In this document: piece by piece, positions 25,201 through 59,365 of the stretch | Layout of the letters: every line of letters starts with the position of its first letter | Numbering within the stretch: the stretch's first letter is position 1 | Virus record (IMG/VR): IMGVR_UViG_3300009180_002437 | Length of the DNA stretch: 64,000 bases | From: a virus | Taxonomy: Duplodnaviria > Heunggongvirae > Uroviricota > Caudoviricetes | Strand: one strand, 5' to 3' | Notes under the pieces: generated by a model | Databases searched by the model: none | Seen by the model: only the letters and a program-made list of their open reading frames with translations | What the model was told of the DNA's origin: nothing | Made by a program: the position numbers and the translations under genes

Positions 25201-25209
25201 TCTTATCAC

Positions 25210-25238: not shown

Positions 25239-25263
25239 ATAACGGTACTGGATAAAGGATACC

Positions 25264-44055: not shown

Positions 44056-45654
44056 ATGACTCAAGATAACCTTACCGCCAAACAACTGGACTATGCGATT
44101 TTTCTTCCTGCATTGTCGGGTTTTTACTCCAGCTATATAGGCAAACAACGTGGCGGCGTTCACGTTGAACCTGCTCGTATGCCCGCCAATATCCAGGATA
44201 TGGAGATGCTTAATTGGCTCAACGACCAAAAGGCATTGTTCCCATATAAATGGAGTCTGTACTCCGCGGGGCATGCCAATTTAGATATCAATAAACAGGA
44301 CTGGGCCGAAGACATGGTGCGTAATCGTGATCCCAATACATTCCTGTTGGGTGATTCAGGCGGGTTCCAGATCGGCAAAGGTCGATGGGAAGGTGACTGG
44401 AAAAATCCTGCATGTCCCAAAGCAAAACAAAAACGTGAGCAAGTTCTTGCCTGGATGGATGCGTATATGGACTATGGCATGGTACTGGATGTGCCTACAT
44501 GGATTACCAACTTTCCCAATAGTCGCAAGGTCACTGGTATCAATACATATCAAGACGCTGTTGATGCTACGTATATTAATAATGAATATTTTATTGCCAA
44601 TCGTTCGGGCAAATGTAAATTTTTAAATGTACTACAGGGTGGCAATCAAACAGACGCACACAAGTGGTATAACACCATGAAGAAGTATTGTGATCCAAAA
44701 CAATATCCCGGCAAACATTTTAATGGCTGGGCACTGGGCGGACAACATACGTCTGATATTGAACTGGTATTAAAAAGAATAGTTACACTTAGGTTTGAAG
44801 GATTGCTTGAAGAAGGTCTACATGACTGGATGCACTTCCTGGGTATTGGTAGACTTGAGTGGGCGTTGATGTTGACCGACATTCAACGTGCTGTTCGTAA
44901 ATATCACAATCCAAACTTTACTGTTAGCTTTGACTGTGCAAGTCCATTCTTGGCTACTGCCAATGGACAAGTATATCATCAAATTGATATTCAGGATAGG
45001 AAGAAGTGGTGCTATCGCATGAGTCCTATTGTTGACAATAAAAAGTACGCGACTGACACACGCACATATCGTGATGCGGTGCTACAAGATGGCCTAATAA
45101 AACACTTTGACGAGAGCCCAATGAGTGCAAACTTCCTGGTTAAAGATATCTGTTACTATAAAGATGGAGTTCCTAAAACTCCGGCTGAATTGGGAACGGA
45201 AACTTTTGATCCAGCTAATCCAGCACATTACACAGTGATGCCTGATCTAAATAAAATAGGCAAGATAGGTAGAACAAGTTGGGACTCGTTTAGCTATGCA
45301 TTGCTAATGGGACACAATGTCTGGACTCATATTGAATCTGTGCAGCGTTCCAATCGTGAGTATGATGCTGGAATTTGTCCCACTATGCTGGTAGAAGAAA
45401 AGTTTGAACAGCTATATTTCAGAGATTTAGTAGATGCCATATTTTCTATTGACAATTTAGAAGATGCTCTTGCTTTCATTGACTATCATGATAAATTTTG
45501 GCAACGGTTCGTTGGCACTAAAGGCGCTACTGGAAAGAAAACTGTTAATTCACGTACTATGTTTGATGCGTTATTTGAAATCCCCGATTATACGCAAGTA
45601 GATGAATCTGAACTGGATGAGTCTAAACTTGAAGATCTGGAAAAATCCGCATGA
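44056..45654 (+). CDS. dpdA: TGT-family protein, DpdA-like 7-deazaguanine DNA transglycosylase
   Basis: LLGDSGGFQIG (the TGT DSGGFQ motif), GMVLDVPTW, FLNVLQGG, WALGGQ, and VSFDCASPF (the catalytic Asp region D-x-FDC). Confidence 0.75.
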   Translation: MTQDNLTAKQLDYAIFLPALSGFYSSYIGKQRGGVHVEPARMPANIQDMEMLNWLNDQKALFPYKWSLYSAGHANLDINKQDWAEDMVRNRDPNTFLLGDSGGFQIGKGRWEGDWKNPACPKAKQKREQVLAWMDAYMDYGMVLDVPTWITNFPNSRKVTGINTYQDAVDATYINNEYFIANRSGKCKFLNVLQGGNQTDAHKWYNTMKKYCDPKQYPGKHFNGWALGGQHTSDIELVLKRIVTLRFEGLLEEGLHDWMHFLGIGRLEWALMLTDIQRAVRKYHNPNFTVSFDCASPFLATANGQVYHQIDIQDRKKWCYRMSPIVDNKKYATDTRTYRDAVLQDGLIKHFDESPMSANFLVKDICYYKDGVPKTPAELGTETFDPANPAHYTVMPDLNKIGKIGRTSWDSFSYALLMGHNVWTHIESVQRSNREYDAGICPTMLVEEKFEQLYFRDLVDAIFSIDNLEDALAFIDYHDKFWQRFVGTKGATGKKTVNSRTMFDALFEIPDYTQVDESELDESKLEDLEKSA

Positions 45655-46562
45655 AGAGTCTTGTTATAGGTATGGGCATCGGCCAGTTATATCTTCATGT
45701 ATTAGTTGAGTTAGGTCACGAAGTTGTTACTGTTGATAGTGATGCTGCTAAATCAGCCGATTATACTAACGTAAAATCAGCATTACAGGAACACGCATAT
45801 TTTGATACAGTAAACATTTGTACTCCTAACTTTACTCATTTGGAGATAGCAAGGGCTGTAGCTAAACATGCCAGGATCGTGTTCATTGAAAAACCAGGGT
45901 TAGAAACTTCAGCACAATGGAAACATCTATGTAATGAGTTTCCCGACACACGTTTTATGATGGTTAAGAATAATCAATATCGTGATAATATTAATGTATT
46001 AGCACAACTAGCACATAAGGCAACGATTATTAATCTAACATGGAACAACAACGATCGTGTTCCTAACCCTGGCACTTGGTTTACCACGTATGATTTATCG
46101 TTTGGTGGAGTAAGTAGAGATTTAATTCCACACTTATTAAGTTTATTCCAATCGCTGTCAGGCTTTACTCATGATCAAGCTAAACTAGATTACGAAACAG
46201 TGGATCAACGTTGGCAATTAAAAGACTTAATCAAAACTGACTATGGCATTGTAAATCCTAATGGAGTATATGATGTCGAAGATCATATAGAATTGCATTT
46301 TAATGACGCACAAGGCCGTAAGTGGTTTATTGAAAGTGACTGGCGTACACTAAATGGTGACGATCGCAGTATTCTAATGATATTTGCGGATGGGTCTCGT
46401 TATTATTATGAATTAGGCTTGTGTCCTGAAGATGCGTATAAGCGTATGATTGATACTGCTGTTAAAATGACGGACGTCGACGCATACTGGCAACATCAAT
46501 ATGAGTTGGATATGTGGATACATAAAACAATTGAATCGCTTGATTTAGTGGGGGCAACATGA
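45651..46562 (+). CDS. Gfo/Idh/MocA-family NAD(P)-dependent oxidoreductase
   Basis: Rossmann N-terminus MKSLVIGMGIGQ plus ICTPNFTHLEIARAVAKHARIVFIEKP (the family EKP motif). Confidence 0.55.
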   Translation: MKSLVIGMGIGQLYLHVLVELGHEVVTVDSDAAKSADYTNVKSALQEHAYFDTVNICTPNFTHLEIARAVAKHARIVFIEKPGLETSAQWKHLCNEFPDTRFMMVKNNQYRDNINVLAQLAHKATIINLTWNNNDRVPNPGTWFTTYDLSFGGVSRDLIPHLLSLFQSLSGFTHDQAKLDYETVDQRWQLKDLIKTDYGIVNPNGVYDVEDHIELHFNDAQGRKWFIESDWRTLNGDDRSILMIFADGSRYYYELGLCPEDAYKRMIDTAVKMTDVDAYWQHQYELDMWIHKTIESLDLVGAT

Positions 46563-47464
46563 GAACAAGAATTTTATATACAGATGGGAAGGGTAAGTTT
46601 ACGGAAACAGGTTGGAATAAACCCGATCCCACCGCAGATGAGATTGAAGTCAAAGCCGTTATGACCGGAGTATGCCGCAGCGACATTGACATGATGACTG
46701 GGGGCTTTGGTCCATTACCCTTGGAAATGAGTGGGCACGAAGGTCTGGGCAAGGTTACTCGTGTTGGGGCAAATGTACTGGACGTACGGGTAGGCGACCT
46801 AGTCTCCACTCGCGGCGAGCCAGCATATTCCGACTACTACAATGTTCGGCAGGGAGAGTATGTATCGGTACCCGAGGCACATCCTCGATACATTATTGAG
46901 CCAGTGGCCTGTGGGTATAACCTCATCATGCAGACATATGACGAACTGCTGGCACGACATGGCGATGGCAGTCGATTGTTAATCCTGGGCAGTGGATTTT
47001 TGGCTTGGGTAGCATATAACTCATTAATCATAGAAGGATTGCGATTTGAGGTAGATGTTGTGGGCAGTAGCAACACCGCAATATGGAAAGATCGATTACA
47101 GGATAAACCCGTAGGGCAGTACGATGTTGTTATTGACCTAAGTGATAAGACTACTGTATTTGATAGCGATATATTGAATCTTGGTGCATTAGTAGTCATG
47201 GGCACACAGAAACAAGTCACAACTGATTTTAGTCAACTGCTATGGAAAGCATGTACCATGGTATTTCCCAGTCCCCGCAATCCGAGATTCCATTTAGTCA
47301 TGGCTCGTGCGGAGTTTTGGGTAAGTAAAGGTAACTTAGATGTTGACTACTTCTGGACGCAAGCGTATACTAGAGATAGTGAGTGGCAACAGGCTTTTGA
47401 CGATGGCTTAAATCGTCCCAAAAATTATAGCCGTGGTTATATTGTATGGCAGGATAACAAATGA
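46559..47464 (+). CDS. zinc-binding MDR (alcohol/threonine dehydrogenase-like) oxidoreductase
   Basis: GVCRSDIDMM ... SGHEGLGKV (GHE motif) plus a downstream Rossmann GSGFLAW. Confidence 0.55.
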   Translation: MRTRILYTDGKGKFTETGWNKPDPTADEIEVKAVMTGVCRSDIDMMTGGFGPLPLEMSGHEGLGKVTRVGANVLDVRVGDLVSTRGEPAYSDYYNVRQGEYVSVPEAHPRYIIEPVACGYNLIMQTYDELLARHGDGSRLLILGSGFLAWVAYNSLIIEGLRFEVDVVGSSNTAIWKDRLQDKPVGQYDVVIDLSDKTTVFDSDILNLGALVVMGTQKQVTTDFSQLLWKACTMVFPSPRNPRFHLVMARAEFWVSKGNLDVDYFWTQAYTRDSEWQQAFDDGLNRPKNYSRGYIVWQDNK

Positions 47465-47919
47465 TTAATCAACAACGACAACAAGCATTAGCAGAAGAAG
47501 CTATCCGTATTATGTATAAAGCAGAACGTAAAGTATGGGTAACCTTTCGCAAAGAAGGTATTCACAAGTATCCCGCAGCAGCAACAGATCCCTTACTAGC
47601 AACAGGTGATGAATATGATGTGTCATTTCTAGCTAATGAGCATAGACATATTTTCCACTTCCGTGTTTGGATTGATGTATTTCATAACGATCGTGATATT
47701 GAGTTTATTCAGTTTAAACGATGGTTAGAAAATCTTTACAAAGATGGTATTCTATCATTAGATTATAAATCATGCGAAATGATCGCAGATGATTTATATA
47801 TTAACATTTCTGCACGTTATCCTAAACGTGCGGTGTGGATTGAGGTCTCCGAAGATGGTGAGAACGGATGCCTCATTAAATACGAACTTTCTCGCCCTTC
47901 ACAAACAGTATTAATTTAA
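47461..47919 (+). CDS. hypothetical protein; possibly a second T-fold (PTPS/QueD-like) protein
   Basis: ANEHRHIFHFRVWIDV...EFIQFKRWLENL loosely parallels the QueD blocks CxxxHGHSF.V.LEI ... DFAELK. Confidence 0.25.
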   Translation: MINQQRQQALAEEAIRIMYKAERKVWVTFRKEGIHKYPAAATDPLLATGDEYDVSFLANEHRHIFHFRVWIDVFHNDRDIEFIQFKRWLENLYKDGILSLDYKSCEMIADDLYINISARYPKRAVWIEVSEDGENGCLIKYELSRPSQTVLI

Positions 47920-47929
47920 AGGAATTAAA

Positions 47930-48151
47930 ATGGCAAAGTTGTCTTTCAAGCCTAACGAACGTGCAAATCAAACTCTAGACGATCTCGAGAAGTTTTTAGA
48001 ATTCTGTAGAGATTATGGGTATCGCTACAACGAGAACGATTTATATAATTTTAAAGCGTATGCTTGGCAACAATACAACAAATTTGTTCAGGGTAAAAAT
48101 GCCAAGAACATGTGGGCCGAAGATGCACGCAGATTTGGGAAAATAAATTGA
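47930..48151 (+). CDS. hypothetical protein
   Basis: A 73-aa ORF with Shine-Dalgarno site aaagga. Confidence 0.35.
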   Translation: MAKLSFKPNERANQTLDDLEKFLEFCRDYGYRYNENDLYNFKAYAWQQYNKFVQGKNAKNMWAEDARRFGKIN

Positions 48152-49203
48152 CAGTTTTTTTAGTTGATCTAGAAGCAGTCTCAACCCGGTATACCGGGCA
48201 GTGGAAGACTCATCTTCCACTGTTACTTGAAAAGGAAGGACATAATGTCCATATTATTGACGGACCTACTGATATCCCTAATGCTACAACTCCTGGTGCT
48301 TTTCTTAATTTTGGGGGCACCAACATTTACAAAGCTGCACAAGTTGAAGCTATGGGTAGACTCTTCACCCAGGGTGAAGTTAAGCCTGGCGATCATTTTA
48401 TCTTTACAGACGCTTGGCATCCTGGTATTATTAACCTTAGATACATGAGTGAGTTACTGAAAATTCCAGTAACTACACACGGTCTATGGCATGCAGGTAG
48501 CTATGATCCTGAAGATTTTCTAGGTCGGTTAATCGGCGATAAACCCTGGGTTAGGCATGCGGAAAAAAGTTTCTTTTTTGCGTTTGATCATAACTATTTT
48601 GCCACTGATTTTCATATCAAGATGTTTGCCAAGAACTTATTTGATGCAGTGGACAATGGTGCAAACCCTTACGTAACACGAACTGGGTGGCCCATGGAAT
48701 ATATGGATGAACTACTTACCCCATACAAGAATCTAAAGAAGCGTAATCTTGTATTATTTCCACATCGCATTGCCCAGGAAAAACAAGTGGAAATATTTCG
48801 GGATCTAGCATCTAAATTACCACAGTATGAATTCATTGTGTGTCAGGATCAAGAACTAACTAAACATGAATACCATACGTTATTAGGTGAAGCAAAAGTA
48901 GTATTCAGTGCTAACCTACAGGAAACACTGGGTATCAGTTGTTACGAGGGTGCAGTTGTTAATGCTATCCCCATGGTACCTGATAGACTTAGTTATAGAG
49001 AAATGTATTATGATGAATTTAGATATGATTCTACATTTACTCAAAATTATAAATTTTATGAAAAAAGCAGACCGTATCTAGCTAAAAAACTCATGTCATA
49101 CATGAGCAACTATGAATCATTGCTGCCTTTACTGGAACAACAAGCAGCCAAATTGTCCAAGGATTTCTTTTCGGCCGGTAATTTACTATTAAATATAAGA
49201 TGA
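48148..49203 (+). CDS. GT4-like glycosyltransferase
   Basis: C-terminal ETLGISCYEGAVVNAIPMV (E-x7-E-like GT-B motif). TTG at 48148 overlaps the upstream TGA, with GGGAAAA upstream. Confidence 0.45.
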   Translation: MTVFLVDLEAVSTRYTGQWKTHLPLLLEKEGHNVHIIDGPTDIPNATTPGAFLNFGGTNIYKAAQVEAMGRLFTQGEVKPGDHFIFTDAWHPGIINLRYMSELLKIPVTTHGLWHAGSYDPEDFLGRLIGDKPWVRHAEKSFFFAFDHNYFATDFHIKMFAKNLFDAVDNGANPYVTRTGWPMEYMDELLTPYKNLKKRNLVLFPHRIAQEKQVEIFRDLASKLPQYEFIVCQDQELTKHEYHTLLGEAKVVFSANLQETLGISCYEGAVVNAIPMVPDRLSYREMYYDEFRYDSTFTQNYKFYEKSRPYLAKKLMSYMSNYESLLPLLEQQAAKLSKDFFSAGNLLLNIR

Positions 49204-49910
49204 AAATTTTAGTATGTGGTGCCTCAGTAGTAATGCCTGACCTGTCAGCCTCATGGACTCAACGCACTTGGGTACATTATTTACAACAAAAATTAAACTG
49301 TGAGATCGTAAATATAGCACGAGCAGGATGTGGAAACCAGTATATTCACGATGCAGTAATCGCAGAGGTTACTGAAAGGCCATATGATTTAGTTTTAGTA
49401 TCTTGGAATATTGCAAATCGAGTAGAATTTAGAACTCATCAAAAACTACCAATAACAGACTGGATTAGAAAAGGAAAAAATACTAATCCACACACCGAAT
49501 ATATGCAGTCAGAATGGATATGGCCACATACTGCTGACAATATAATGCCTTCTGAAGAAGCGGCGGAAAATAAAAATGAATTATTCCGACGTCGATTTCT
49601 CACTATTCCAACCTATGAAATCAATCATCAGATAATGTTAACCCAAGCATTGTCACTTCAGTCTACACTTAAATCCTACGGTATACCATATACCTTTGTC
49701 TGGTACCGAACGCTGTTACGGCTCAAACAGTTTAAAAATTATTACAATAAAATTGACTGGAATTTCGTGCATCCTGATAGTCTTTTTAGACAGGCCAAAA
49801 ACAAGAAGATGTGGGATGACAAATCTCTACATCCTACTGATGAAGCGTATAGATGGTATGCCGATGAGATGTACAAGTTCCTTAATGACAGGAATCTAAT
49901 AAAGCCCTAG
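49200..49910 (+). CDS. SGNH/GDSL-like hydrolase (block V DxxH present; block I is a GAS variant)
   Basis: ILVCGASVV and DKSLHPTDEAYRWYA. Confidence 0.4.
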   Translation: MKILVCGASVVMPDLSASWTQRTWVHYLQQKLNCEIVNIARAGCGNQYIHDAVIAEVTERPYDLVLVSWNIANRVEFRTHQKLPITDWIRKGKNTNPHTEYMQSEWIWPHTADNIMPSEEAAENKNELFRRRFLTIPTYEINHQIMLTQALSLQSTLKSYGIPYTFVWYRTLLRLKQFKNYYNKIDWNFVHPDSLFRQAKNKKMWDDKSLHPTDEAYRWYADEMYKFLNDRNLIKP

Positions 49911-50961
49911 ATATTTTTCCTGCTGGGCTAAGTGGAATACTATCAACACACTTGAGTACTGCTGGTTTGCAATGTTTACCAAGGCTGATCAAAAAGTTCT
50001 TGATAGTATCTTCATCGCATGTACCTACATATAGACACTTAACATGATCTGTACCAAATACCACACATTCCTGCATACCCGGAATGTTCTGTAGTAACTG
50101 TCGTTCGATACTCACAGGATTAATTTTAGAACCCTTGACGTTAATTTGATCACGACTACGACCCAGTATACGATAGTAACCCATTTCATCTTGGTCAGCT
50201 AGGTCTCCTGTATCGTACCAATCACCATGACAAATATTAAAACCCTTGATCATCAAATGACCATTTTCAATTTTAGCTTCTATGCCATCAGGCAATCCTA
50301 CTGTGCCAACTCGTTGTGGGCCGGCAAGTGGATTAGTGAAACAGTGACTCATTGCTTCTGTCATACCAAACGCTTCTACTATAGGAACATTAAACTTTGC
50401 GCTTAATTTGTGATATAAATCGTGTGACATAGGAGCACTGGCAGAACGTATAAATCTTAAATTGTCAAAATTTAATTCAGCAATAACTCTTAGTACATCA
50501 GGAATGGCAGTTATAAAAGTTGGCTTAGTAGAGGGAAAGGTTTTAATGTCTTTCATAGTAACGTAGGTAGTTTCGCATCCTGCTAATTGCGCCGCCCAGT
50601 AAAAACCCTGCCCATGCGCATGCCATAAGCTCATGATGCTGGTATATCTATCGTTAGCTGTCAAGTTGTATGATCTAACAATAGTAGCAGCCATGTTGTT
50701 TAGATGTGCTTGTGTAAAGCTACAAAACTTACTATCTCCTGTGGTGCCTGATGTATACCAAAGTACTCTTTCGTTAGGATAGTCATTACCATTTCTAACT
50801 TTTTCTTGATCTCGAGTGATGTATAAACTCCAGTCGGAATTTTCCAATAGGTATCGGTTCCTAGCCTCAGGGGCATTAGGATTTATGATCATTATCGAAT
50901 GATCTTTTAACTGGGGAATAAAATCTTGTGGATTGTCCACACATAAGACGGCACGTTTCAT
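49882..50961 (-). CDS. adenylate-forming enzyme (acyl/aryl-AMP ligase, DltA-sized)
   Basis: AMP-binding motif WYTSGTTGDSKF, plus YDTGDLA and RSRDQINVKGSKI. The likely start is MKRAVLCVD at 50961; the ORF-track start 50997 lies upstream. Confidence 0.65.
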   Translation of the reverse strand: MKRAVLCVDNPQDFIPQLKDHSIMIINPNAPEARNRYLLENSDWSLYITRDQEKVRNGNDYPNERVLWYTSGTTGDSKFCSFTQAHLNNMAATIVRSYNLTANDRYTSIMSLWHAHGQGFYWAAQLAGCETTYVTMKDIKTFPSTKPTFITAIPDVLRVIAELNFDNLRFIRSASAPMSHDLYHKLSAKFNVPIVEAFGMTEAMSHCFTNPLAGPQRVGTVGLPDGIEAKIENGHLMIKGFNICHGDWYDTGDLADQDEMGYYRILGRSRDQINVKGSKINPVSIERQLLQNIPGMQECVVFGTDHVKCLYVGTCDEDTIKNFLISLGKHCKPAVLKCVDSIPLSPAGKISRALLDSCH

Positions 50962-50968
50962 GCAGATA

Positions 50969-50997
50969 TTTATATAGCCATAATGGTAGCGTATCAA
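50969..50997 (-). promoter_or_regulatory. sigma70-type promoter on the minus strand (TTGATA-17-TATAAA)
   Basis: Read as the reverse complement of 50969-50997. It diverges from the plus-strand promoter. Confidence 0.45.
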
Positions 50998-51046
50998 TTT
51001 ATGGTTAAGTTATAATAGTGAATGACAAATGAAATTACCATAAACT

Positions 51047-51075
51047 TTGACTCAGGCCTAAATAGTCTATATAAT
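51047..51075 (+). promoter_or_regulatory. sigma70 promoter TTGACT-17-TATAAT
   Basis: TTGACT at 51047-51052 and TATAAT at 51070-51075. Shine-Dalgarno site aaggaag before the ATG at 51095. Confidence 0.6.
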
Positions 51076-51094
51076 ATAACAACAAGGAAGCAAT

Positions 51095-51493: not shown

Positions 51494-52186
51494 ATGGCGG
51501 GATACTTAGGTGACAGCATTCGTCGCAGAATGCAAGCAGATGGTAAGAGATTTTGGGCCGGCGACAACATCAGTGACTACGTTACTGAAGAAGATAAAAG
51601 GATTCTAATTAACGAAGCCACAGAGGCGTTCGAAACTGTACTAGAAAGTCTATTGATCGACATTGACGCTGATCCCAATAGTCAAGGCACAGCGCATAGA
51701 TTGGCCAAAATGTATTTTAACGAAATTATGGCAGGCAGATATGAGCCTGCCCCAGATTGTACAGCGTTTCCAAATGATTCGGAGAATAGATATGAAGGTA
51801 TGTTGGTCGTGCGCAGTGAGTTGCGTAGTATGTGCAGTCACCACCATCAGCCTGTTACTGGTGTTGCCTACATTGGAATCCTTGCCGCAAATAAACTTAT
51901 CGGGCTATCTAAGTATACTAGGATTGCTCAGTGGTGTGCTCGCCGTGGTACTCTGCAGGAAGAGCTCTGTAACGACATCGCCCGAGAAATAATGCGAGCA
52001 ACCGACAGTGAGGATGTGGGTGTTTATATTCAAGCCATACACGGCTGCTGCGAAAATCGCGGAATTATGGCACACAGTAGTTTAACACAGACTACAGTAT
52101 TGAAAGGTGCGTTCAAGGAACACATGGATACAAAGAAGGAATTCTTTGATAATATTAAACTACAACAAGACTTTGCCCCACGATAG
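51494..52186 (+). CDS. folE: GTP cyclohydrolase I
   Basis: MCSHHHQPVTGVAYIGI...GLSKYTRIAQWCARRGTLQEEL aligns with the FolE CEHH/GLSK/R-QE active-site block. Confidence 0.75.
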   Translation: MAGYLGDSIRRRMQADGKRFWAGDNISDYVTEEDKRILINEATEAFETVLESLLIDIDADPNSQGTAHRLAKMYFNEIMAGRYEPAPDCTAFPNDSENRYEGMLVVRSELRSMCSHHHQPVTGVAYIGILAANKLIGLSKYTRIAQWCARRGTLQEELCNDIAREIMRATDSEDVGVYIQAIHGCCENRGIMAHSSLTQTTVLKGAFKEHMDTKKEFFDNIKLQQDFAPR

Positions 52187-52195
52187 GAGATCATA

Positions 52196-52423
52196 ATGGC
52201 AACTAAAACGTTTTTACCAACAACTGAAATCAGCGAAATCAAACACAAACTAGAAAAAGTAAACGAAAACTTTACTGTCTACATGTATGACAACGGATTT
52301 ATGTTTGAAATTGCAGGACGAAACCGTGCTGGCGATTATAAAACTGTTAAAATTCTTTGTCAAAATATGGATCAATTGGTATCCTTGGTACAGCAAGCTG
52401 CTGATATGGAAAAAGATGATTGA
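52196..52423 (+). CDS. hypothetical protein
   Basis: A 75-aa ORF with Shine-Dalgarno site aggag. Confidence 0.4.
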   Translation: MATKTFLPTTEISEIKHKLEKVNENFTVYMYDNGFMFEIAGRNRAGDYKTVKILCQNMDQLVSLVQQAADMEKDD

Positions 52424-52772
52424 TCATGTTAAAGTAGGCGGCCCGTGGATAGAAATTACAACTTCTGGCGGTACTATACCATATGTTCCATCCGGCCCTA
52501 ACCCCATGCAGGGTGCAGTTAGAGTTATAAATGGACAACAAGAAGTTTGGAATGGCACCACTTGGATGGCCATGTACGGTAATAGTGCAACAATTAATTT
52601 AACTAAACATGCAGAAGCAATAATGGCATGGGCCGACAAGAAAATGACACAAGAACATAGGGCAGAAGAATTGGCCAAAACTAAACCTGCAGTAGCAGAT
52701 GCCCTTGCTGCGGCTAAACACGCACAAGAGCAACTTAATATTATATTACTATTAACAGAGGAAAATAAATGA
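52416..52772 (+). CDS. hypothetical protein
   Basis: The frame opens at 52287; the ATG at 52416 overlaps the upstream stop. Confidence 0.35.
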   Translation: MIDHVKVGGPWIEITTSGGTIPYVPSGPNPMQGAVRVINGQQEVWNGTTWMAMYGNSATINLTKHAEAIMAWADKKMTQEHRAEELAKTKPAVADALAAAKHAQEQLNIILLLTEENK

Positions 52773-52918
52773 CACCAATGGTTAAAAACTTTGCCAAGTG
52801 CGGATGTGGTCGTACCAGAGACCTAGAAGGCTATTGCGATAGTAGCCACGCACTATCAGAAGAGGAATATGCAGAACTGCAGAAAAATGAAGATATTGAT
52901 TGGGGAGATGAAGAATGA
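52769..52918 (+). CDS. 49-aa Cys-rich mini-protein with a CDGSH-like motif (absent from the ORF track)
   Basis: ATGACACCAATGG... encodes MTPMVKNFAKCGCGRTRDLEGYCDSSHALSEEEYAELQKNEDIDWGDEE. The CxC...CDSSH motif resembles a CDGSH iron-sulfur domain. ATGA coupling at both ends. Confidence 0.35.
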   Translation: MTPMVKNFAKCGCGRTRDLEGYCDSSHALSEEEYAELQKNEDIDWGDEE

Positions 52919-53223
52919 AATGGTTTAAACGAAAGATACTACAATGGTTGCAGGAAGCGCAAATGGAACAGTTAAATGATGAACCGTTAAATTCTCGCTT
53001 GGTCGACATGGATTCTGTTGAGGATGACAGCGGGCATAAAATTGACATGGGTAAATCAGTTAGATTTTCCGTGCTACCCGCAAGAGGTGGATGTGTAATC
53101 GAAATTAAATCCTGGAACCAAAAAGACCACGAATGGGATATTGTAGCACATATTATTCCTGAAGGTGAAGATATCGCTCATCGTGTTGGCCAATTGGTAT
53201 CTATGGAATTTTTACGTCGATGA
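52915..53223 (+). CDS. hypothetical protein
   Basis: A 102-aa ORF. Confidence 0.35.
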   Translation: MKWFKRKILQWLQEAQMEQLNDEPLNSRLVDMDSVEDDSGHKIDMGKSVRFSVLPARGGCVIEIKSWNQKDHEWDIVAHIIPEGEDIAHRVGQLVSMEFLRR

Positions 53224-53558
53224 CTTTGTACGCCGTTAATCCTGTACTGACAAATAGTGGTAGTGGGTATACAAATAATACTACTATCAATGTTGGTCCC
53301 GTCAGTCCAGCGTTGGGTCAAATACGATACAATACTACCATTAGCTCATTTGAACTGTATGATGGTACTTATTGGCAACCTGCGTTAGCTACCGCAACCG
53401 CAATTGAGGATTTCCTTGAACAAGCTAAGACAAGCGTTACAGAACATATCAATAACGAACACGCAGGTAATGTGACTATTAATGACGCATTGGCGACATG
53501 GTTGGAAGCATGTGATAAGTTTAAAGTTATCATTGCAATTGCAGGTAAAAGTAAATAA
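53220..53558 (+). CDS. hypothetical protein
   Basis: A 112-aa ORF. Confidence 0.35.
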   Translation: MTLYAVNPVLTNSGSGYTNNTTINVGPVSPALGQIRYNTTISSFELYDGTYWQPALATATAIEDFLEQAKTSVTEHINNEHAGNVTINDALATWLEACDKFKVIIAIAGKSK

Positions 53559-53591
53559 TGCAGCAAAGCGGCCTTTTGGCATCACCCCCGC

Positions 53592-53620
53592 TATACAAAC
53601 TCTGCTGCCTATGCTATAAT
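53592..53620 (+). promoter_or_regulatory. sigma70-type promoter (TATACA-17-TATAAT)
   Basis: TATAAT at 53615-53620. Shine-Dalgarno site aggag before 53640. Confidence 0.4.
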
Positions 53621-53639
53621 ATATCATAGGAGATCAATA

Positions 53640-54284
53640 ATGGCAAATAACCCCCACCAGCAAGCACTAAGTGATTACTTCGATGCTCGCATCAATCATT
53701 ATCATCACACAAAATCTGGTAACACAGTAGGGCCAGTCTTGCAAAAAAGTCTAGCAGATAACGTAGAGCAGGCATTGAGTAGCGTGCCATCAACTGTGCA
53801 ATACAAGTACACCAGTACAAAAGAATATCACGACGCTTTTCCCTGCGCCTACAGACAGTGGCGAGCAGATAGCCACTGTAATTTAATACATGGCTACAGC
53901 TTTAGTATGAAGTTTTACTTTGGCACCAACGACCTGGATGTACGCAACTGGGCAGCAGACTACGGTGGACTCAAAGAGCTAAAAGACACACTAGAAGATC
54001 AGTTTGATCATACATTGCTAGTAGCAGAAGATGATCCAGAACTGGAGACATTTAAACTGCTGCAATCTAAGAACATGGCCAAGCTGACTATTTTGCCACG
54101 TTTAGGTTGTGAAGGATTAGCTGACATGCTGTACCGGTATGTTAATGGCGTTTATATTCCTGACATGTGGGGAACGGCAGAAGCAGATAGACTTTGGTGC
54201 TATCGTGTAGAAGTACGCGAAACACAAAGCAATATGGCTTACAGAGAAGGACATAGAGAATGGCATGAGGATTTATTAATATGA
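53640..54284 (+). CDS. queD: QueD-like 6-carboxytetrahydropterin synthase (PTPS/T-fold) with an N-terminal extension
   Basis: SHCNLIHGYSFSMKFYFG and DYGGLKELKDTLEDQFDHTLL parallel the QueD blocks KCGRLHGHSF.V.LEI and DFAELK...LDHHYL. The second zinc His of HGH is replaced by Tyr. Confidence 0.5.
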   Translation: MANNPHQQALSDYFDARINHYHHTKSGNTVGPVLQKSLADNVEQALSSVPSTVQYKYTSTKEYHDAFPCAYRQWRADSHCNLIHGYSFSMKFYFGTNDLDVRNWAADYGGLKELKDTLEDQFDHTLLVAEDDPELETFKLLQSKNMAKLTILPRLGCEGLADMLYRYVNGVYIPDMWGTAEADRLWCYRVEVRETQSNMAYREGHREWHEDLLI

Positions 54285-54589
54285 GTTCCAAAGAATATGA
54301 CGAAACCCTACAACTCGATCGTAGGGTAATGGAAGCTCTGGGCATACTGCAAGAGGAGTGTGCTGAGGTTATAGTTGAAGTTAGTAAATGTCGGAGATTT
54401 GGAATCGACAGTGAACATTATACTACCAAAGAACTGCACAAAGATATGCTAGCACAGGAGATCGGCGATGTAATGTGCATGGTGGATATATTGGTTGAGC
54501 AGGGTGTAATTGATAGAGCTGAACTGATTCTGGCCAGGGAACGTAAAAGAGAAAAACTTAAACGATGGTCCAAGATCTTTGAAGATTAG
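54281..54589 (+). CDS. MazG-like nucleoside triphosphate pyrophosphohydrolase
   Basis: All-alpha EE..E...GD pattern: LQEECAEVIVEV ... AQEIGDVMCMVDIL. Confidence 0.5.
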   Translation: MSSKEYDETLQLDRRVMEALGILQEECAEVIVEVSKCRRFGIDSEHYTTKELHKDMLAQEIGDVMCMVDILVEQGVIDRAELILARERKREKLKRWSKIFED

Positions 54590-54646
54590 AAAATTGTTAA
54601 GTGCATATATTAAACAGTAAATAGTTCAATTACAGAAAGGATATCA

Positions 54647-55474
54647 ATGGCCAAGTCCACAAATGAATATAAAATAGCAGTATTATTACCCACCAGAGGT
54701 AGAACTACAGCACTAAAGCTCAGTATTATTAGTATTTTTAACCGTGTACTTGACCTAGATGGAGTCCAACTATTACTGGGATTCGATAATGATGACGAAG
54801 TTGGGTTAGGTTATTTCTCCACAGATATTCAACCCTGGATGGAAGAAAAAGGAATCAACTATACGGTAATGGTTTTTGAACCCATGGGATATAACGGTCT
54901 AAATCGTTACTACAATGGGCTGGCGGCGCAGGCAACCGCCGATTGGCTATTTGTATGGAATGATGATGCACTCATGGAGACAACAGGCTGGGACAAAGTT
55001 GTAACCAGCCATACTGGCGAGTTCAAACTACTTAAAATTCACGTACATCGTGAACATCCGTATTCCATCTTCCCCATCTATCCCAAGGAATGGTATGACT
55101 TATTTGGATTCGTGTCACGTCACCAAATGACCGATGCCGAACTTAGTCAAATTGCATATATGCTGGACATTATGGAAATTGTGGAAATTTATGCCACACA
55201 TGATAGACATGATTTAACTGGCAATAATAACGACACTACATATCAAAAACGTGATATGCTGGAAGGTAATCCTAATAATCCACTGGACTTTCATCATAAA
55301 TCATATGGAAATGGCAGACTAATGGACGCTGAACATATCTCTACGCATTTAGCCGCAAAAGGTGTAGATCTTACTTTTTGGCACAATGTTAAACTGGGAA
55401 AACAAGATCCCTGGGAAAAACTTAGGGCCAATGATATCAACAAACAAATGACACAAACACCGGTAAAGAGATAA
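54647..55474 (+). CDS. putative glycosyltransferase (GT-A-like, DD motif)
   Basis: KIAVLLPTRGR ... FVWNDDA. The call is weak. Confidence 0.3.
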   Translation: MAKSTNEYKIAVLLPTRGRTTALKLSIISIFNRVLDLDGVQLLLGFDNDDEVGLGYFSTDIQPWMEEKGINYTVMVFEPMGYNGLNRYYNGLAAQATADWLFVWNDDALMETTGWDKVVTSHTGEFKLLKIHVHREHPYSIFPIYPKEWYDLFGFVSRHQMTDAELSQIAYMLDIMEIVEIYATHDRHDLTGNNNDTTYQKRDMLEGNPNNPLDFHHKSYGNGRLMDAEHISTHLAAKGVDLTFWHNVKLGKQDPWEKLRANDINKQMTQTPVKR

Positions 55475-56703
55475 TGAGTAAAATTACAGAAAGTAACCAT
55501 ATGTGGCAATGCCTAATTACTGGGGCGCCGGTGACAAGGGTATTGGATTTTGGGCAGCATGCCTACGCCGATACCTTTATCGCCGAGGATCAGTTAAAAT
55601 TAGCTGAACCTGTATTCCCATTAGAAGTACATCTAAATACCGAATCAGGCGGATTGCAACTGGGCTACGTGAGCGATGCTAAGGATAGATATAACTTATA
55701 CAGCTATAGCTACACCAGTTCAAACTCCACCACCGCCAGGAATCATTGGGACGAGTATGCTGCAACAATCAAAGGTCGATTCAAGCCCCAGGGCTTGGTG
55801 GTGGAGATCGGCAGTAATGATGGATACCTAATTAAACAATTTCAAGATGACGGGGTAACCGCATTAGGTGTTGACTCATCCAAAGCCATGTGTGACATTG
55901 CCAAAGCTGCAGGTGTTAAAACAGTCAAAGGTCTGTTTGACATATCGCTAGCTGATAAATTGAAAGAAAAACATGGCCTTGCCAAGGTGATCATGGCCAA
56001 CAACGTGTTTAATCACGCTAACGATCCCATTAACTTTGCTATTGGCATAACACACCTATTGGACAAAGATGGTATATTTGTTTTTGAAGTCCCTTACTGG
56101 GCCAGTATGGTAGAAAGCGGCCGCTTTGTGGATATGGTATACCACGAACACATTTCTTACTTTACCATTAAAAGTGTTTGGAATTTATTGCAACAAGTTG
56201 GCTTAACTATCGCGGACTACGATGTAGTCGATTATCATGGTGGTAGCCTACGTGTGATAGCCAAAATGGATACTGGTGATGGAACACCTATTCTTGTGCA
56301 GTCGGCTATTGAACGAGAAACGGCCATGGGGTTATTCAATCATAAGTTCTACAAGAAGTTGCAGGCTAAATTTGTACAACAACGTAATACCTGGCTCCGT
56401 AACTTTTATCAAATATTGGCTGATGAACCTGATGCTGTCATTATCGGAGTCGGTGCCGCAGCCAAGGCCAATACCTGGCTTACCTGGCATAAATTAGATA
56501 AAACATTACTGCATTGTATTACTGATGCTAGTGAATTCAAACAGGGTAAGTACACCCCACTATCACGTATCCCAATTAAAAGTGATGATGAGTTTGCGCT
56601 ACACGAAAAACCATATGCATTGGTGTTAAGCTGGAACATTGGAGAACCACTTAAACAAGCATTATTAAAAATTAATCCCAACACAAGGTTCATATCACAA
56701 TGA
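55474..56703 (+). CDS. NDP-hexose C-methyltransferase (TylC3/CloU-like: zinc-binding N-domain plus class-I MTase)
   Basis: N-terminal CLITGAPVTRVLDFGQHAYADTF (putative Zn-binding domain). VVEIGSNDGYL (motif I). C-methyltransferase-type C-terminal domain. Confidence 0.6.
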   Translation: MSKITESNHMWQCLITGAPVTRVLDFGQHAYADTFIAEDQLKLAEPVFPLEVHLNTESGGLQLGYVSDAKDRYNLYSYSYTSSNSTTARNHWDEYAATIKGRFKPQGLVVEIGSNDGYLIKQFQDDGVTALGVDSSKAMCDIAKAAGVKTVKGLFDISLADKLKEKHGLAKVIMANNVFNHANDPINFAIGITHLLDKDGIFVFEVPYWASMVESGRFVDMVYHEHISYFTIKSVWNLLQQVGLTIADYDVVDYHGGSLRVIAKMDTGDGTPILVQSAIERETAMGLFNHKFYKKLQAKFVQQRNTWLRNFYQILADEPDAVIIGVGAAAKANTWLTWHKLDKTLLHCITDASEFKQGKYTPLSRIPIKSDDEFALHEKPYALVLSWNIGEPLKQALLKINPNTRFISQ

Positions 56704-57107
56704 AATATTATAATGTCGCAATTAACACCGAGCCCGGACTAGGCTCATTCCAAGACGATCGTGGATCTATCGTAGATATCTTTTATAAAAAGGCCATCAA
56801 TCACGGATGTATCATTAGTAATAATCCCGGTGCCGTTCGTGGTAATCACTATCATAATCATACTGTACAGTATACCTATGTTATTGCAGGTGACCTAACT
56901 TATTACTCACAACCAGCAGACAAATCCGAACCAGTATCCACTTACGTGGCAGTTACTGGAGACGTCATTATCAGTGATCCCAAAGAAATTCATGCTATGA
57001 AAGCTGGTGAGTTTGGATGTGTTTTTATAGCCTTTGCCGAAGGCCCACGTGGTGGCGAAGATTACGAAACAGATACAGTAAGAGTTGATTCTATTATTCC
57101 TGAATGA
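56700..57107 (+). CDS. cupin-fold sugar 3,4-ketoisomerase (FdtA/WxcM-like)
   Basis: DDRGSIVDIFYKK ... AVRGNHYHNH matches FdtA E-RGS...RG-H-H. Confidence 0.55.
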   Translation: MKYYNVAINTEPGLGSFQDDRGSIVDIFYKKAINHGCIISNNPGAVRGNHYHNHTVQYTYVIAGDLTYYSQPADKSEPVSTYVAVTGDVIISDPKEIHAMKAGEFGCVFIAFAEGPRGGEDYETDTVRVDSIIPE

Positions 57108-57700
57108 AAACAGTAGTTATATTTGGAGGAAGTGGTGGGATAGGTAAAGCCACATGTGAAGTCTTTGCCGCGGCTGGGTATACAGTACACCCTGTTAGTA
57201 GTAAACAAATTGACTTTTTATGGGAACAAAGTCAATTTCAAGTAGATAACTTGTTGAAACAAATTTTGCCCGACGTGGTGGTCAACTGCGTTGGGCATTT
57301 TGATGACGCCAACAAAGAGCCTCATTTTAAAACAATGAACATTAACGTAGGCTCTAACTGGAGTATCATTAAACATTACATAGAAAACGTTAGTACCAAG
57401 CCAGTTAAAATTATCATGGTGGGTTCCAGTGCTTACAAGGCCGGTCGAAAGGCCTATATTTTGTACGCTGCTAGTAAGGCAGCACTATATAATATGTGGC
57501 AAGGCGCTTGCGAGCATTTTACGGGGTCAAATGTGTCATTAGGTTTGATTAACCCAGTAAGAACTCGTACACCGATGATAGATATGTCAACTAAAGATAT
57601 TTGTCTAGAGCCAATGGATGTAGCACAAGCAATTTTAAATATGACATCAGTCAGTGGTAACGAACTGGTTGATATGAAGTATCCAGAGGAAACAAAATGA
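57104..57700 (+). CDS. short-chain dehydrogenase/reductase (SDR)
   Basis: VVIFGGSGGIGKA (TGxxxGIG) and YAASKAAL (YxxxK). Confidence 0.6.
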   Translation: MKTVVIFGGSGGIGKATCEVFAAAGYTVHPVSSKQIDFLWEQSQFQVDNLLKQILPDVVVNCVGHFDDANKEPHFKTMNINVGSNWSIIKHYIENVSTKPVKIIMVGSSAYKAGRKAYILYAASKAALYNMWQGACEHFTGSNVSLGLINPVRTRTPMIDMSTKDICLEPMDVAQAILNMTSVSGNELVDMKYPEETK

Positions 57701-58473
57701 AAATTGGAATTATAGGCAAGGGAACGGTAGGCAAGGCAGTATACGAAGGGCTTAATCACTTGGGACATGAAATGAGTTTCTTTGATCCTGCGTATGATGG
57801 GTCAACACTCGGTGATGTGTTGGGTACAGATTGTGTGTTTATCAGTGTACCAACTAACCAAGCAGCAAATGGAGATTGTGATACCAGTATCGTGGAAAGT
57901 GTTATTTCAGCATTACACGCAGCCGAATATACAGGACTAGTCAGTATCAAAAGTACAGTAGTTCCCGGCACTTGTGATCGTTTATCAGCAGCATATCCTA
58001 AACTACGTATTTGTTCAGTACCAGAATTTCTCCGTGCCAAGACAGCATTAGCTGACTTTATGTATAACCATGATTTACTAATTATCGGCAGCACTCGTGA
58101 TGAAGATTATGTCATGATGAGAAAAATACATGGCAACTTGCCTAAGAATGTGGCTTGTGTTAGGCCAGCAGAAGCAGAAGTTGTAAAATACTTTAACAAC
58201 GTTAATCACGCTACACAAATTATATTTGCCAATATTGCCTATGCTGTATGTAAGAAGCTGGGTGTTGACTATGACAATGTATATAACGCTATCATTCAGC
58301 GTGATAGTATTAATCCAGCTTACCTAATGTGTAATGAGAATCTGCGTGGATTTGGCGGTCATTGTTTGCCCAAGGATACCAGTGCTTGGAACAATTTAGT
58401 TAAAAGTTTAGGGCTAGAGTTTTCAATGATCCAAGCCCTAATTGATGACAACGCAAAGGTGAACAATGAGTAA
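57697..58473 (+). CDS. UDP-glucose/GDP-mannose dehydrogenase-family protein (short, lacks the C-terminal UDP-binding domain)
   Basis: MKIGIIGKGTVGKAV Rossmann fold, and the catalytic GFGGHCLPKDT (GGxCxxKD). Only 258 aa. Confidence 0.55.
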   Translation: MKIGIIGKGTVGKAVYEGLNHLGHEMSFFDPAYDGSTLGDVLGTDCVFISVPTNQAANGDCDTSIVESVISALHAAEYTGLVSIKSTVVPGTCDRLSAAYPKLRICSVPEFLRAKTALADFMYNHDLLIIGSTRDEDYVMMRKIHGNLPKNVACVRPAEAEVVKYFNNVNHATQIIFANIAYAVCKKLGVDYDNVYNAIIQRDSINPAYLMCNENLRGFGGHCLPKDTSAWNNLVKSLGLEFSMIQALIDDNAKVNNE

Positions 58474-59365
58474 AATCTTAATCACAGGTGCTAGTGGACT
58501 GTTAGGGACGGAATTTTGTCACCAACTTAAGGCAGCTGGACATGAAGTATGGGCAGTAGATAATCATAGCCGTAGTTCGACTATCCCTCCATGTGACGAA
58601 TGGCATAAGATGGATCTATTGGCAAATGATAGATTTATTGGACTAGCATCATTGCCCCGTGACTTTGACTACATTTATCACTATGGTGCAATCAACGGCA
58701 CTACTAACTTTTATAAGATGCCCAACAAGGTATTGGAAAACAACTTTGTCAGTGATATCAATATTTTCAACTTTGCCAAGAAGTGTACTAATCTTAAACG
58801 ATTGGTATACGCCTCAAGTTCGGAAGTGGTAGCAGATGATCCAGTTAGTCCCGTACCAGAAAACTCAGATGTATTCATCAAGGATATACATAACGCACGT
58901 TGGAGTTATCGTCTGGCCAAAATTACCAGTGAAAACTTTTTGGCTAATTCTGATCTACCATATGTTATGATACGTTATTTTAATGTGTATGGTGCAAATT
59001 CAAAGCAGGGGCATTTTCTCGGTGACCAAATTGACAAGATTAAAAATGGTGTCTTTTCGGTTATAGGTTCACATGAAACACGTTCGTTCTGTCATGTGAG
59101 CGATGCTATTCGTGCCAGTATCTATGTTGCTGAAAATGCCAATCGTGTACTGGTAAACATTGGTAATGATCGTGAAATATCAATTGGTGATGCGGTTCGT
59201 GTTATAGCAACCGAACTTGGGCATCCTGATGCTGTATTCGAAGAATTGCCCAGCATGTCGGGATCGGTTGCTAATCGGCGTCCTGACATTACCAAACTAC
59301 GTGAAATTATGCCCGATTATTCGCCCATGAGTTTTGAAGAAGGTATTCGGCAAATTTTAAGTTGA
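58466..59365 (+). CDS. NAD-dependent sugar epimerase/4,6-dehydratase (extended SDR)
   Basis: ILITGASGLLG and YRLAK (YxxxK). Confidence 0.6.
   Translation: MSKILITGASGLLGTEFCHQLKAAGHEVWAVDNHSRSSTIPPCDEWHKMDLLANDRFIGLASLPRDFDYIYHYGAINGTTNFYKMPNKVLENNFVSDINIFNFAKKCTNLKRLVYASSSEVVADDPVSPVPENSDVFIKDIHNARWSYRLAKITSENFLANSDLPYVMIRYFNVYGANSKQGHFLGDQIDKIKNGVFSVIGSHETRSFCHVSDAIRASIYVAENANRVLVNIGNDREISIGDAVRVIATELGHPDAVFEELPSMSGSVANRRPDITKLREIMPDYSPMSFEEGIRQILS

Follow-up and report, generated by a model that had tools for sequence, protein, structure and literature searches.

We analysed a 64,000-nucleotide (nt) stretch of DNA (hereafter the window) from the tailed-phage record IMGVR_UViG_3300009180_002437 of IMG/VR, in which genes for sugar-modifying enzymes lie among genes for a 7-deazaguanine DNA-modification system, between those for a family-B DNA polymerase (PolB) and FEN. 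A first-pass annotation, made from the letters of the sequence, had described eleven open reading frames (ORFs) in two blocks, 45651–50961 and 54647–59365 (block 1 and block 2), as a single deoxysugar toolkit. All eleven ORFs are present where it placed them, and the gene order recurs in at least 67 independent metagenomic loci, so the arrangement is not due to chance. The enzymes are thus real, and the single unit is not: comparison with about 150 related loci splits the set into separate modules. Gene identities, folds and order, as well as the co-occurrence or independence of the genes, are reported below as observed.

The deazaguanine genes and their glycosyltransferase

The region begins with a gene for a 532-amino-acid (aa) protein (44056–45654, plus strand) that we accept as a probable distant DpdA, a DNA-guanine transglycosylase far removed from other members of the TGT family, on the strength of remote profile alignments and motifs. 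Searches of Pfam, PHROG, NCBIfam and the PDB (phmmer and hmmsearch) all gave no match for this protein. In hhalign, a profile of its family (107 sequences) aligned with the protein annotated as TGT/DpdA in Xanthomonas phage X1 (probability 94%, E = 1e-7), with a 424-aa protein of the ACP17 cluster (probability 96%, E = 1e-9) and, more weakly, with the TGT of Z. mobilis, whose sequence was entered by hand (probability 46%, E = 3e-5). The TGT motifs DSGGFQ, GWAxGG, HFLG and SFDxxSP fall in register in these alignments. The protein is 36% identical to gp316 of phage PA5oct, and its family is not linked by BLAST to the DpdA of ACP17 or X1. The family consists of 947 representative clusters; of its remote members, ten were looked up, and every one of them is named 'hypothetical'. 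Remote homologues with 31–39% identity (L195–L198) occur in bacterial elements and in small temperate phages, where they adjoin integrases and have neither deazaguanine synthesis genes nor a glycosyltransferase nearby; an Azospirillum plasmid protein falls into the cluster of one of them.

An ORF of 152 aa that had been passed over in the first reading (47461–47919, plus strand) encodes DpdL. This protein has been described as a QueD paralogue in which the CxxxHGH motif has turned into LxxxHRHxF, and decarboxylation of 7-carboxy-7-deazaguanine (CDG) has been proposed as its function (Cui et al. 2023, PMC10516641). We assign the window ORF to DpdL because it carries the published motif (L57-ANE-H61-R-H63-I-F65) and because of its identity to the DpdL-type ORFs of ACP17 (58%), X1 (52%) and PA5oct (gp318, 53%); identity to Phosso gp223 is 69%. 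Profile searches say little about it: the ORF matches phrog_17812, a PHROG of unknown function, a profile search against the PDB and a Pfam scan of 18 members returned nothing, and hhalign placed it in the expected register of E. coli QueD with a probability of only 5%.

Family searches confirmed the interleaving of folE, queD and queE with the sugar blocks noted in the first-pass annotation, and dpdA, which it also named, is recognised by remote homology only. FolE, the GTP cyclohydrolase I, is encoded at 51494–52186 (PF01227, E = 1.1e-38), QueD, of the PTPS family and with a 60-aa N-terminal extension, at 53640–54284 (PF01242, E = 2.5e-15), and QueE, the CDG synthase, at 61431–62276 (NCBIfam QueE models, E = 1e-15 to 2e-9), all on the plus strand; homologues of QueE were found in more than 420 viral loci. 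The 214-aa QueD was considered as a member of block 2 and rejected, as it is a QueD of the usual kind for DpdL-type clusters and shares 53% identity with that of ACP17. It is followed by a weakly recognised MazG-like nucleotide pyrophosphohydrolase (54281–54589, plus strand; PF03819, E = 0.0027, below the cut-off). The SGGxDS PP-loop motif of QueC is found in no frame of the window, and none of the scanned ORFs matched QueC.

DpdL is known from phages, phiST and ACP17 among them, in which DpdA, FolE, QueD and QueE occur without QueC (PMC10516641). The window resembles these systems in its FolE, QueD and QueE, in the missing QueC and in the LxxxHRHxF motif of its DpdL, and also in a distant DpdA missed by standard hidden Markov models, a MazG-like gene (the phiST cluster has a MazG/dUTPase-like gene; PMC10516641) and a cluster adjoining the DNA polymerase. 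Based on the DpdL motif and identities, together with the lack of the QueC-type PP-loop motif from the window, we regard the island as a CDG/DpdL-branch deazaguanine system. In X1, a 177-aa PP-loop protein of the PAPS-reductase family (SGGKDS; L201, 4341–4874) lies between FolE and the GT4/DpdA/DpdL genes, and might be a stand-in for QueC or serve CDG amidation.

Downstream of DpdL lies the gene for a retaining GT4-type glycosyltransferase (GT4; 48148–49203, plus strand), which has a two-Rossmann GT-B fold and a C-terminal EX7E motif. Between the two genes, a small ORF of 71 aa read from the sequence (47931–48146, plus strand) stops just ahead of the TTG start of GT4, and some relatives have an ORF of about 95 aa at this place. 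DpdA and DpdL are separated by a Gfo/Idh/MocA NAD(P) sugar oxidoreductase (GFO; 45651–46562, plus strand; PF01408, E = 1.3e-7) and a Zn-dependent MDR (medium-chain) dehydrogenase (46559–47464, plus strand; ADH_N, E = 4.7e-10), and both calls agree with those of the first reading. The MDR dehydrogenase shows the Zn motifs GVCRSD and GHEG and weak NCBIfam matches to polyol and inosose dehydrogenases. Overlaps of 4 nt connect DpdA with GFO, GFO with MDR and MDR with DpdL, and another connects GT4 with the gene that follows it. The GFO and MDR dehydrogenases are additions of the window relative to the phiST and ACP17 systems.

In each of six divergent groups of phages (the window lineage, PA5oct, ACP17, X1, Phosso and an uncultured contig, L199), a GT4 homologue adjoins DpdL and/or DpdA, in which respect they differ from phiST. 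Identity among the GT4s of the six groups is only 26–50%, and the gene order also varies: QueD, FolE, one other gene, DpdA, GT4, DpdL and QueE in ACP17; DpdA, GT4 (gp317 in PA5oct) and DpdL, with QueE farther along, in PA5oct-like phages; DpdL, GT4, one other gene and FolE, with QueE farther along, in Phosso; GT4, TGT, DpdL and QueE in X1; and DpdL, one other gene, GT4 and the DpdA-like gene in L199. More distant GT4 homologues occur in other contexts, for example in PhiXhv-12, and the GT4 family has at least 8000 members in environmental data. A small protein family of 132–157 aa with the motif YL..NHS.F also lies by GT4 and DpdA in ACP17 (L150, 6323–6721), L199 (902–1375) and X1 (L201, 5522–5953); no counterpart is present in the window.

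Within the window lineage, the slot beside DpdL and GT4 is variable. It holds GFO and MDR in the window, a different GT4-type enzyme and an extended short-chain dehydrogenase/reductase (SDR) in five relatives (L042, L049, L028, L041 and L037), and three or four extra genes in L062 and L096. Phage DNA-glycosylation clusters have been described with this pattern, a fixed glycosyltransferase and exchangeable sugar-tailoring genes. A search of the accessible literature found no paper tying a glycosyltransferase to deazaguanine DNA, and the word 'glycosyl' does not appear in Cui et al. 2023 (PMC10516641). From gene neighbourhoods, we propose that the CDG-branch deazaguanine DNA-modification system has in GT4 a conserved member that had gone unreported.

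Block 2, the adenylating pair and their independence from the deazaguanine genes

Block 2 consists of six plus-strand genes that overlap by 1–8 nt. The first (54647–55474) encodes a soluble GT2-like glycosyltransferase with a GT-A fold and a DxD-type metal site (hereafter GT-A), without a transmembrane segment. Its nearest viral structural neighbours in BFVD are generic phage and giant-virus GT2s. The second (55474–56703) encodes an NDP-sugar 3-C-methyltransferase of the TylC3/MtmC/TcaB9 family, as the first-pass annotation had suggested, with full-length PDB matches to MtmC (E = 3e-55) and TcaB9 (E = 7e-38). The three-domain architecture of these enzymes is retained, with alignment to MtmC residues 13–393 and to TcaB9 and with the Pfam domains Methyltransf_13, _23 and _14. 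TcaB9-type enzymes have a four-cysteine zinc site in the N-terminal domain. Residues 1–100 of the window protein hold a single cysteine, C13, which is the sole invariant cysteine in 11 homologues, so that the four-cysteine site is not there, and the Pfam match of the N-terminal 'zinc ribbon' (window positions 55474–55770) stands just at the cut-off (31.5 versus 31.3 bits).

The third gene (56700–57107) encodes a small cupin, a probable sugar-nucleotide epimerase or isomerase with weak Cupin_2 and Polysacc_synt_C matches and weak similarity to the WbcJ/Cap5F cupin. It had been called an FdtA-like ketoisomerase; the cupin assignment holds, and a specific resemblance to FdtA/Tyl1a cupins was not confirmed, the matches being generic cupin ones below the cut-off. 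The cupin invariably comes after the C-methyltransferase, cellular genomes included. Next come a short classical SDR, probably a ketoreductase (57104–57700; adh_short, E = 1.6e-16), and a short dehydrogenase similar to UDP-glucose dehydrogenase (UGDH; 57697–58473; NDP-sugar dehydrogenase, E = 1.5e-39), for both of which family searches upheld the earlier calls. The short UGDH aligns to residues 76–312 of the 444-aa 3vtf. It keeps the catalytic GFGGHCLPKD and ends about 30 residues later, and in contrast to classical UGDH it has no C-terminal UDP-binding domain at all and is about 50 residues short in the N-domain. With a length of 256–259 aa in 67 loci, the short form is conserved.

The last gene of block 2 (58466–59365) encodes an extended SDR. 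The first reading took it for a 4,6-dehydratase/epimerase; it is indeed an extended SDR, but its best PDB match is the human UDP-glucuronate decarboxylase UXS1 (E = 3e-19, full length), which makes it a candidate UXS/ArnA-like UDP-glucuronate decarboxylase. GalE follows behind UXS1 among the PDB matches, at about 1e-11 to 1e-13, these scores being modest; the NCBIfam model for UDP-4-keto-pentose/UDP-xylose synthase matches at E = 1e-12, and the SSE and YxxxK (Y-RLA-K) motifs are present. Together the last two genes resemble the UDP-glucose dehydrogenase and UDP-xylose synthase/ArnA pair in their adjacency and in the catalytic cysteine and the YxxxK and SSE motifs. The matches to UXS1 and UGDH fit a branched pentose derived from UDP-glucuronate better than the deoxyhexose route first suggested for block 2. 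A sugar-1-phosphate nucleotidyltransferase of the RmlA type is missing, as had been noted, and RmlB-like matches are distant extended SDRs; the missing RmlA would be explained if block 2 starts from host UDP-glucose.

Block 2 is also similar to the TylC3–TylK–TylC2 set for L-mycarose and to MtmC, TcaB9 and KijD1, in the full-length homology of the methyltransferase and in the adjacency of the genes for C-methyltransferase, cupin epimerase and ketoreductase. In mycarose formation, TylK and TylC2 have the epimerisation and reduction roles. The window set differs in being phage-encoded, in the single cysteine of the N-terminal zinc site and in its upstream steps, which are a short UGDH and a UXS-like enzyme rather than RmlA and RmlB. 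Because of these upstream genes, the substrate is probably a UDP-4-keto-pentose and not a dTDP-4-keto-6-deoxyhexose.

The triad of C-methyltransferase, cupin and SDR genes is adjacent in cellular genomes too, in Polynucleobacter (62% identity), Pelagibacteraceae, acI actinobacteria, Saccharibacteria and DPANN archaea. These loci (L152, a 1.2-Mb contig of Polynucleobacter sp. 73C-SIWE, and L153–L194) belong to streamlined freshwater and marine plankton and DPANN. The 62% identity of the Polynucleobacter copy suggests gene exchange, and it is possibly a clue to the host.

Between GT4 and FolE lie two further genes. One encodes a 236-aa protein, possibly an SGNH-like esterase or acyltransferase (49200–49910, plus strand). 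It had been annotated as an SGNH hydrolase, a call that the searches did not confirm: no SGNH model matched and there is a sub-threshold match to DUF6071 only (E = 0.0016); by eye, GAS and HPT..AY motifs can be seen, with SGNH block I reading GAS and not GDS. The other encodes a short adenylating enzyme of the ANL family, an acyl- or aminoacyl-AMP ligase (49882–50997, minus strand, with ATG at 50961 as the likely start; AMP-binding, E = 6e-28), in agreement with the earlier call of a minus-strand acyl-AMP ligase. Profile positions 166–357 and a C-terminal subdomain are covered, the N-terminus is about 130 residues shorter than is typical, and many NCBIfam acyl-CoA ligase models match.

We compared 29 window proteins with 147 related loci by tblastn and drew gene maps. 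The core of the lineage comprises PolB, the clamp, DpdA, DpdL, GT4 and FolE, and then a phosphoribosyltransferase (PRT), QueE and FEN. DpdL and GT4 accompany DpdA in 84 and 76 loci, respectively, even without any other sugar gene. GFO and MDR co-occur in 28 loci, invariably between DpdA and DpdL. All six genes of block 2 are found in about 67 loci in conserved order, and the 236-aa protein, always with the AMP-ligase, is limited to the five closest loci; the pair is an optional extra module.

In fourteen loci reaching from PolB to FEN, block 2 is retained and there are zero matches, at any coverage, to DpdA, GFO, MDR, DpdL, GT4, FolE, QueD, MazG and QueE. These loci include the closest relatives (L002–L006), whose flanking genes are 71–96% identical to those of the window, and four of these (L002–L005) retain the AMP-ligase pair with the deazaguanine genes gone. 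The missing genes correspond to four separate segments of the window, all four absent there. In addition, the contigs of the closest block-2-only relatives, one of 177 kb, are not among the best 80 matches to DpdA (at least 59% identity) or the best 80 to QueE (at least 68%). The converse, a deazaguanine core without block 2, occurs in many loci, and the five-gene cassette from C-methyltransferase to the UXS-like gene is also found in an unrelated T4-like lineage, within the replication cluster next to PolB and by a different GT2. One 39-kb sequence filed under a 'Haliscomenobacter sp.' metagenome-assembled genome (MAG; L151, NZ_JBBAKG010000058.1) holds FolE, QueD, GT-A, the whole of block 2, QueE, p157 and FEN in phage order, and looks like a phage contig of the window lineage binned into a bacterial MAG.

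Since block 2 and the AMP-ligase/SGNH-like pair are kept in close and distant relatives without deazaguanine-module genes, neither depends on deazaguanine, and as judged from gene content they apparently cannot tailor a deazaguanine-linked sugar. The earlier proposal of a sugar on deazaguanine was accordingly too broad: it is reasonable for block 1 (GT4, GFO and MDR), given the DpdA/GFO/MDR/DpdL overlaps and the adjacency of GT4 in six groups, and not for block 2 or the pair. It had also named a hydroxymethyl base as an acceptor in DNA. Neither a homologue of ThyA or T4 gp42 (query sequences entered by hand) nor a TET-type gene was detected, in searches that covered the 64-kb window and ±10 kb of the 147 loci. 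Membrane components such as a flippase, a polymerase or a Gtr-type protein are missing from block 2 and from the genes beside it. Given a soluble GT-A and the lack of an encoded membrane partner, the acceptor of block 2 would be cytoplasmic, and may be another base of the DNA, virion proteins or lipid-linked host glycans.

Proposed mechanism and alternative explanations

Our preferred reading, which we put at a probability of about one half, is that the PolB-to-FEN region holds three separable modules: a CDG-branch system that together with GT4 would place a glycosylated 7-deazaguanine in DNA, an independent branched-pentose glycosylation module, and an optional acylation pair. The substrates, the order of steps and both acceptors are what we infer. 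FolE, QueD and QueE would make CDG, DpdL would process the base and the DpdA-type transglycosylase would insert it into DNA. Before or after insertion, GT4 would transfer a sugar onto the 7-deazaguanine base, with a host UDP-sugar re-tailored by GFO and MDR as the likely donor, for instance through oxidation and reduction of a single carbon. Because 7-deazaguanine has no hydroxyl, the sugar would need an N- or C-glycosidic bond, or else an ester bond to CDG, which is the weakest step; an N2- or C7-glycoside, maybe coupled to decarboxylation by DpdL, could be envisaged.

In block 2, the short UGDH would convert host UDP-glucose to UDP-glucuronate and the UXS-like SDR would turn this into UDP-4-keto-pentose (or UDP-xylose). 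TylC3-type enzymes methylate 4-keto sugars, and the window enzyme would C-methylate next to the keto group, after which the cupin would epimerise and the short SDR reduce the sugar, and GT-A would transfer the branched pentose. The adenylating enzyme and the SGNH-like protein may acylate a product. The six-gene block would then be a compact pathway, shared by phages and streamlined plankton, that converts UDP-glucose into a C-methyl-branched pentose.

Several points weigh against this three-module scheme. The DpdA assignment comes from remote profile alignments only, 7-deazaguanine offers no obvious hydroxyl as a handle, and no GT4 homologue of phiST was found in the phage collection. Absence of deazaguanine genes from relatives was judged within ±10 kb and by the best-80 ranking and not on complete genomes. 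For block 2, the cupin shows weak and generic similarity only, and the UDP-sugar route may not run as drawn, given a short UGDH without the UDP-binding domain and a methyltransferase with a degenerate zinc site. Giant-virus GT2s, to which GT-A is structurally close, are usually linked to virion glycans, and the cellular loci of the C-methyltransferase–cupin–SDR triad, with several other extended-SDR sugar genes, look like glycan loci. Finally, phiST, a known DpdL phage, carries plain 7-deaza-2'-deoxyguanosine (dDG; PMC10516641).

The window shares several features with phage DNA glycosylation clusters. It has a soluble GT-B/GT4-like enzyme and a GT-A, with 6kih, BshA, BH4 glucosyltransferase and TarP as structural neighbours; sugar-nucleotide tailoring genes lie by the glycosyltransferase, polymerase and clamp genes are nearby, and the sugar genes vary between relatives. 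The top structural neighbours of GT4 are common to the verified DNA arabinosyltransferases of RB69, DLP3 and HY126, a fold that does not define the acceptor. Known examples include alpha- and beta-glucosylated 5-hydroxymethylcytosine (5hmC) in T4, arabinosylated 5-hydroxycytosine (5hoC) in RB69, DLP3 and HY126 (PMC13326640), and the 5hmC glycans of metaviromes (bioRxiv 10.1101/2023.12.21.572611). In known DNA glycosylation, however, the sugar is placed on the hydroxyl of a modified pyrimidine that comes from a ThyA homologue or a TET-like oxygenase, whereas the partner of the glycosyltransferase in the window is a purine-modifying system and neither enzyme was found. To our knowledge, all known DNA glycosylations are on pyrimidines (5hmC, 5hoC, and 5-hydroxymethyluracil/base J), and all eight known 7-deazaguanines of DNA are small, sugar-free derivatives.

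A glycosylated 7-deazaguanine would be the first sugar-modified purine in any DNA, with a linkage that is itself new chemistry, and would extend DNA hypermodification to glycosylated purines. With somewhat less confidence than we place in the modules, and at odds short of even, we suggest that phages with the DpdA–DpdL–GT4 trio (the window lineage, PA5oct, ACP17, X1 and Phosso) replace or decorate guanine with glycosylated 7-deazaguanine, the sugar varying through swappable tailoring genes, GFO and MDR in the window and epimerase-type SDRs in other lineages. Expression of dpdA and dpdL of ACP17 in E. coli gave no dDG, and further enzymes were suggested as needed (Cui et al., PMC10516641); the way in which PA5oct DNA resists restriction enzymes is indicative of a modified G, the chemistry of which that work did not establish. 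If the suggestion is true, it would explain both the absent product in E. coli and the modified G of PA5oct, a therapeutic jumbo phage, and the size of the GT4 family would make the base abundant in nature. Four cultured phages (PA5oct, ACP17, X1 and Phosso) carry the trio, which makes the claim directly testable.

For block 2, with or without the AMP-ligase/SGNH-like pair, the best-placed alternative is that it makes a branched sugar for virion proteins or a host envelope glycan, with no link to DNA, as the first-pass annotation had offered in its second option. We consider this less likely than not. The independence of block 2 from the deazaguanine genes, the sharing of the triad with glycan-like loci of Polynucleobacter, Pelagibacteraceae, acI and DPANN, the resemblance of GT-A to teichoic-acid, O-antigen and giant-virus GT2s and the failure to find a local base-hydroxylating enzyme are all consistent with it. 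The lack of a flippase, polymerase, Gtr-type or membrane component and of a transmembrane segment in GT-A argues the other way, as does the position of the block, in two unrelated phage lineages, within a replication cluster (clamp, PolB, FEN or UvsX), where known phage DNA glycosyltransferases are found.

That same position favours block 2 as a second DNA-glycosylation system, in which GT-A would put the branched pentose on a base made elsewhere in the genome, for example a 5-hydroxy or 5-hydroxymethyl pyrimidine; in phages with both modules it may extend the GT4 sugar. There is precedent for this, as phage GT-As with TarP-like folds glycosylate 5hmC, together with sugar epimerases and near polymerase and clamp genes, and for the arabinosylation of DNA phages bring NDP-sugar routes of their own. 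Nevertheless, no ThyA, gp42 or TET-type gene was found in the regions searched, and the R...DDD...EDY/F motif published for DNA GT-As can be made out only in part in GT-A; on balance this explanation seems rather unlikely.

It is also conceivable that GT4 shares its location and expression with DpdA and DpdL and yet glycosylates another target made early in infection, the DNA carrying ordinary dDG or its 7-carboxy counterpart (dCDG). Candidates are another DNA base or hydroxyl, DpdA or another replication protein, and a pterin or deazapurine intermediate. The example of phiST, which makes dDG by DpdL without a GT4 homologue, and the missing hydroxyl of 7-deazaguanine speak for such a target. 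On the other hand, adjacency to DpdL and/or DpdA has been kept in six lineages at 26–50% identity, and the window and the 147 loci show no ThyA/hydroxymethylase homologue that could provide a pyrimidine hydroxyl, so that we regard it as unlikely.

Some natural products, huimycin and dapiramicin for instance, are 7-deazaguanines glycosylated at N2, and in the pathways to tubercidin and cadeguomycin FolE, QueD and QueE act with a phosphoribosyltransferase and without QueC. A free glycosylated deazapurine as the product of these genes, which the PRT gene of the cluster would also suit, is nonetheless highly improbable given that a DpdA-type DNA transglycosylase is always present, that PA5oct DNA itself is modified at G and that PRT is equally frequent in relatives without FolE or QueE.

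Lineage, neighbouring genes and other observations

The window comes from an abundant, uncultured lineage of jumbo phages. Its PolB (39688–42348) is 50% identical to that of the Sinorhizobium jumbo phage Phosso, 46% to Atu_ph07 and about 42% to Rak2-like phages. No near-identical DNA was found among 50,697 phage records, and IMG/VR holds hundreds of contigs related to the window, some of more than 300 kb. The rest of the window encodes a clamp loader, a Lon-like protease, DnaJ, PhoH, superoxide dismutase and further genes typical of large phages.

The PRT (59421–59975, plus strand; PF00156, E = 2.2e-16), similar to HPRT/XPRT, is a neighbour coupled to neither module. A tubercidin-like tie to the deazaguanine module was considered and rejected, because PRT occurs with and without FolE, QueE and DpdA, at 50–65% identity throughout and with no split into subfamilies; it is uniformly fast-evolving among relatives.

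A promoter and terminator scan of the window found consensus sites not enriched relative to shuffled sequences and was used as a hint only. The best plus-strand promoter-like matches are in the intergenic gaps ahead of p132/FolE, QueD and PRT: near-consensus sites at 51047–51075 and 53592–53620 for the first two, and a perfect TTGACA-17-TATAAT at 59362–59390, between the UXS-like gene and PRT, for the third. These positions hint that QueD, MazG and block 2 may form one transcription unit in this phage.

Other genes are of interest in their own right. Between PolB and the clamp-like gene, a 308-aa protein (42349–43275) with a faint methyltransferase-like match (phrog_4752, E = 0.005) is retained in relatives with and without deazaguanine genes. 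Many relatives (among them L001, L009, L041, L056 and L118) have an extra ORF of 369–376 aa between QueE/p157 and FEN, where the window has none. A Q/P/K-rich low-complexity ORF of 1121 aa (35265–38630) stands out with a GC content of 0.49 and an AT skew of 0.33, well above the remaining window; it contains a 21-bp tandem repeat at 37015–37111 and matches no family. Host-like auxiliary genes at 3292–3864, 9520–10083, 24403–27543 and 60201–60905 include those for a 2OG-Fe(II) oxygenase, an Fe/Mn superoxide dismutase, DnaJ, a Lon-like ATP-dependent protease and a Bax-inhibitor-1 membrane protein.

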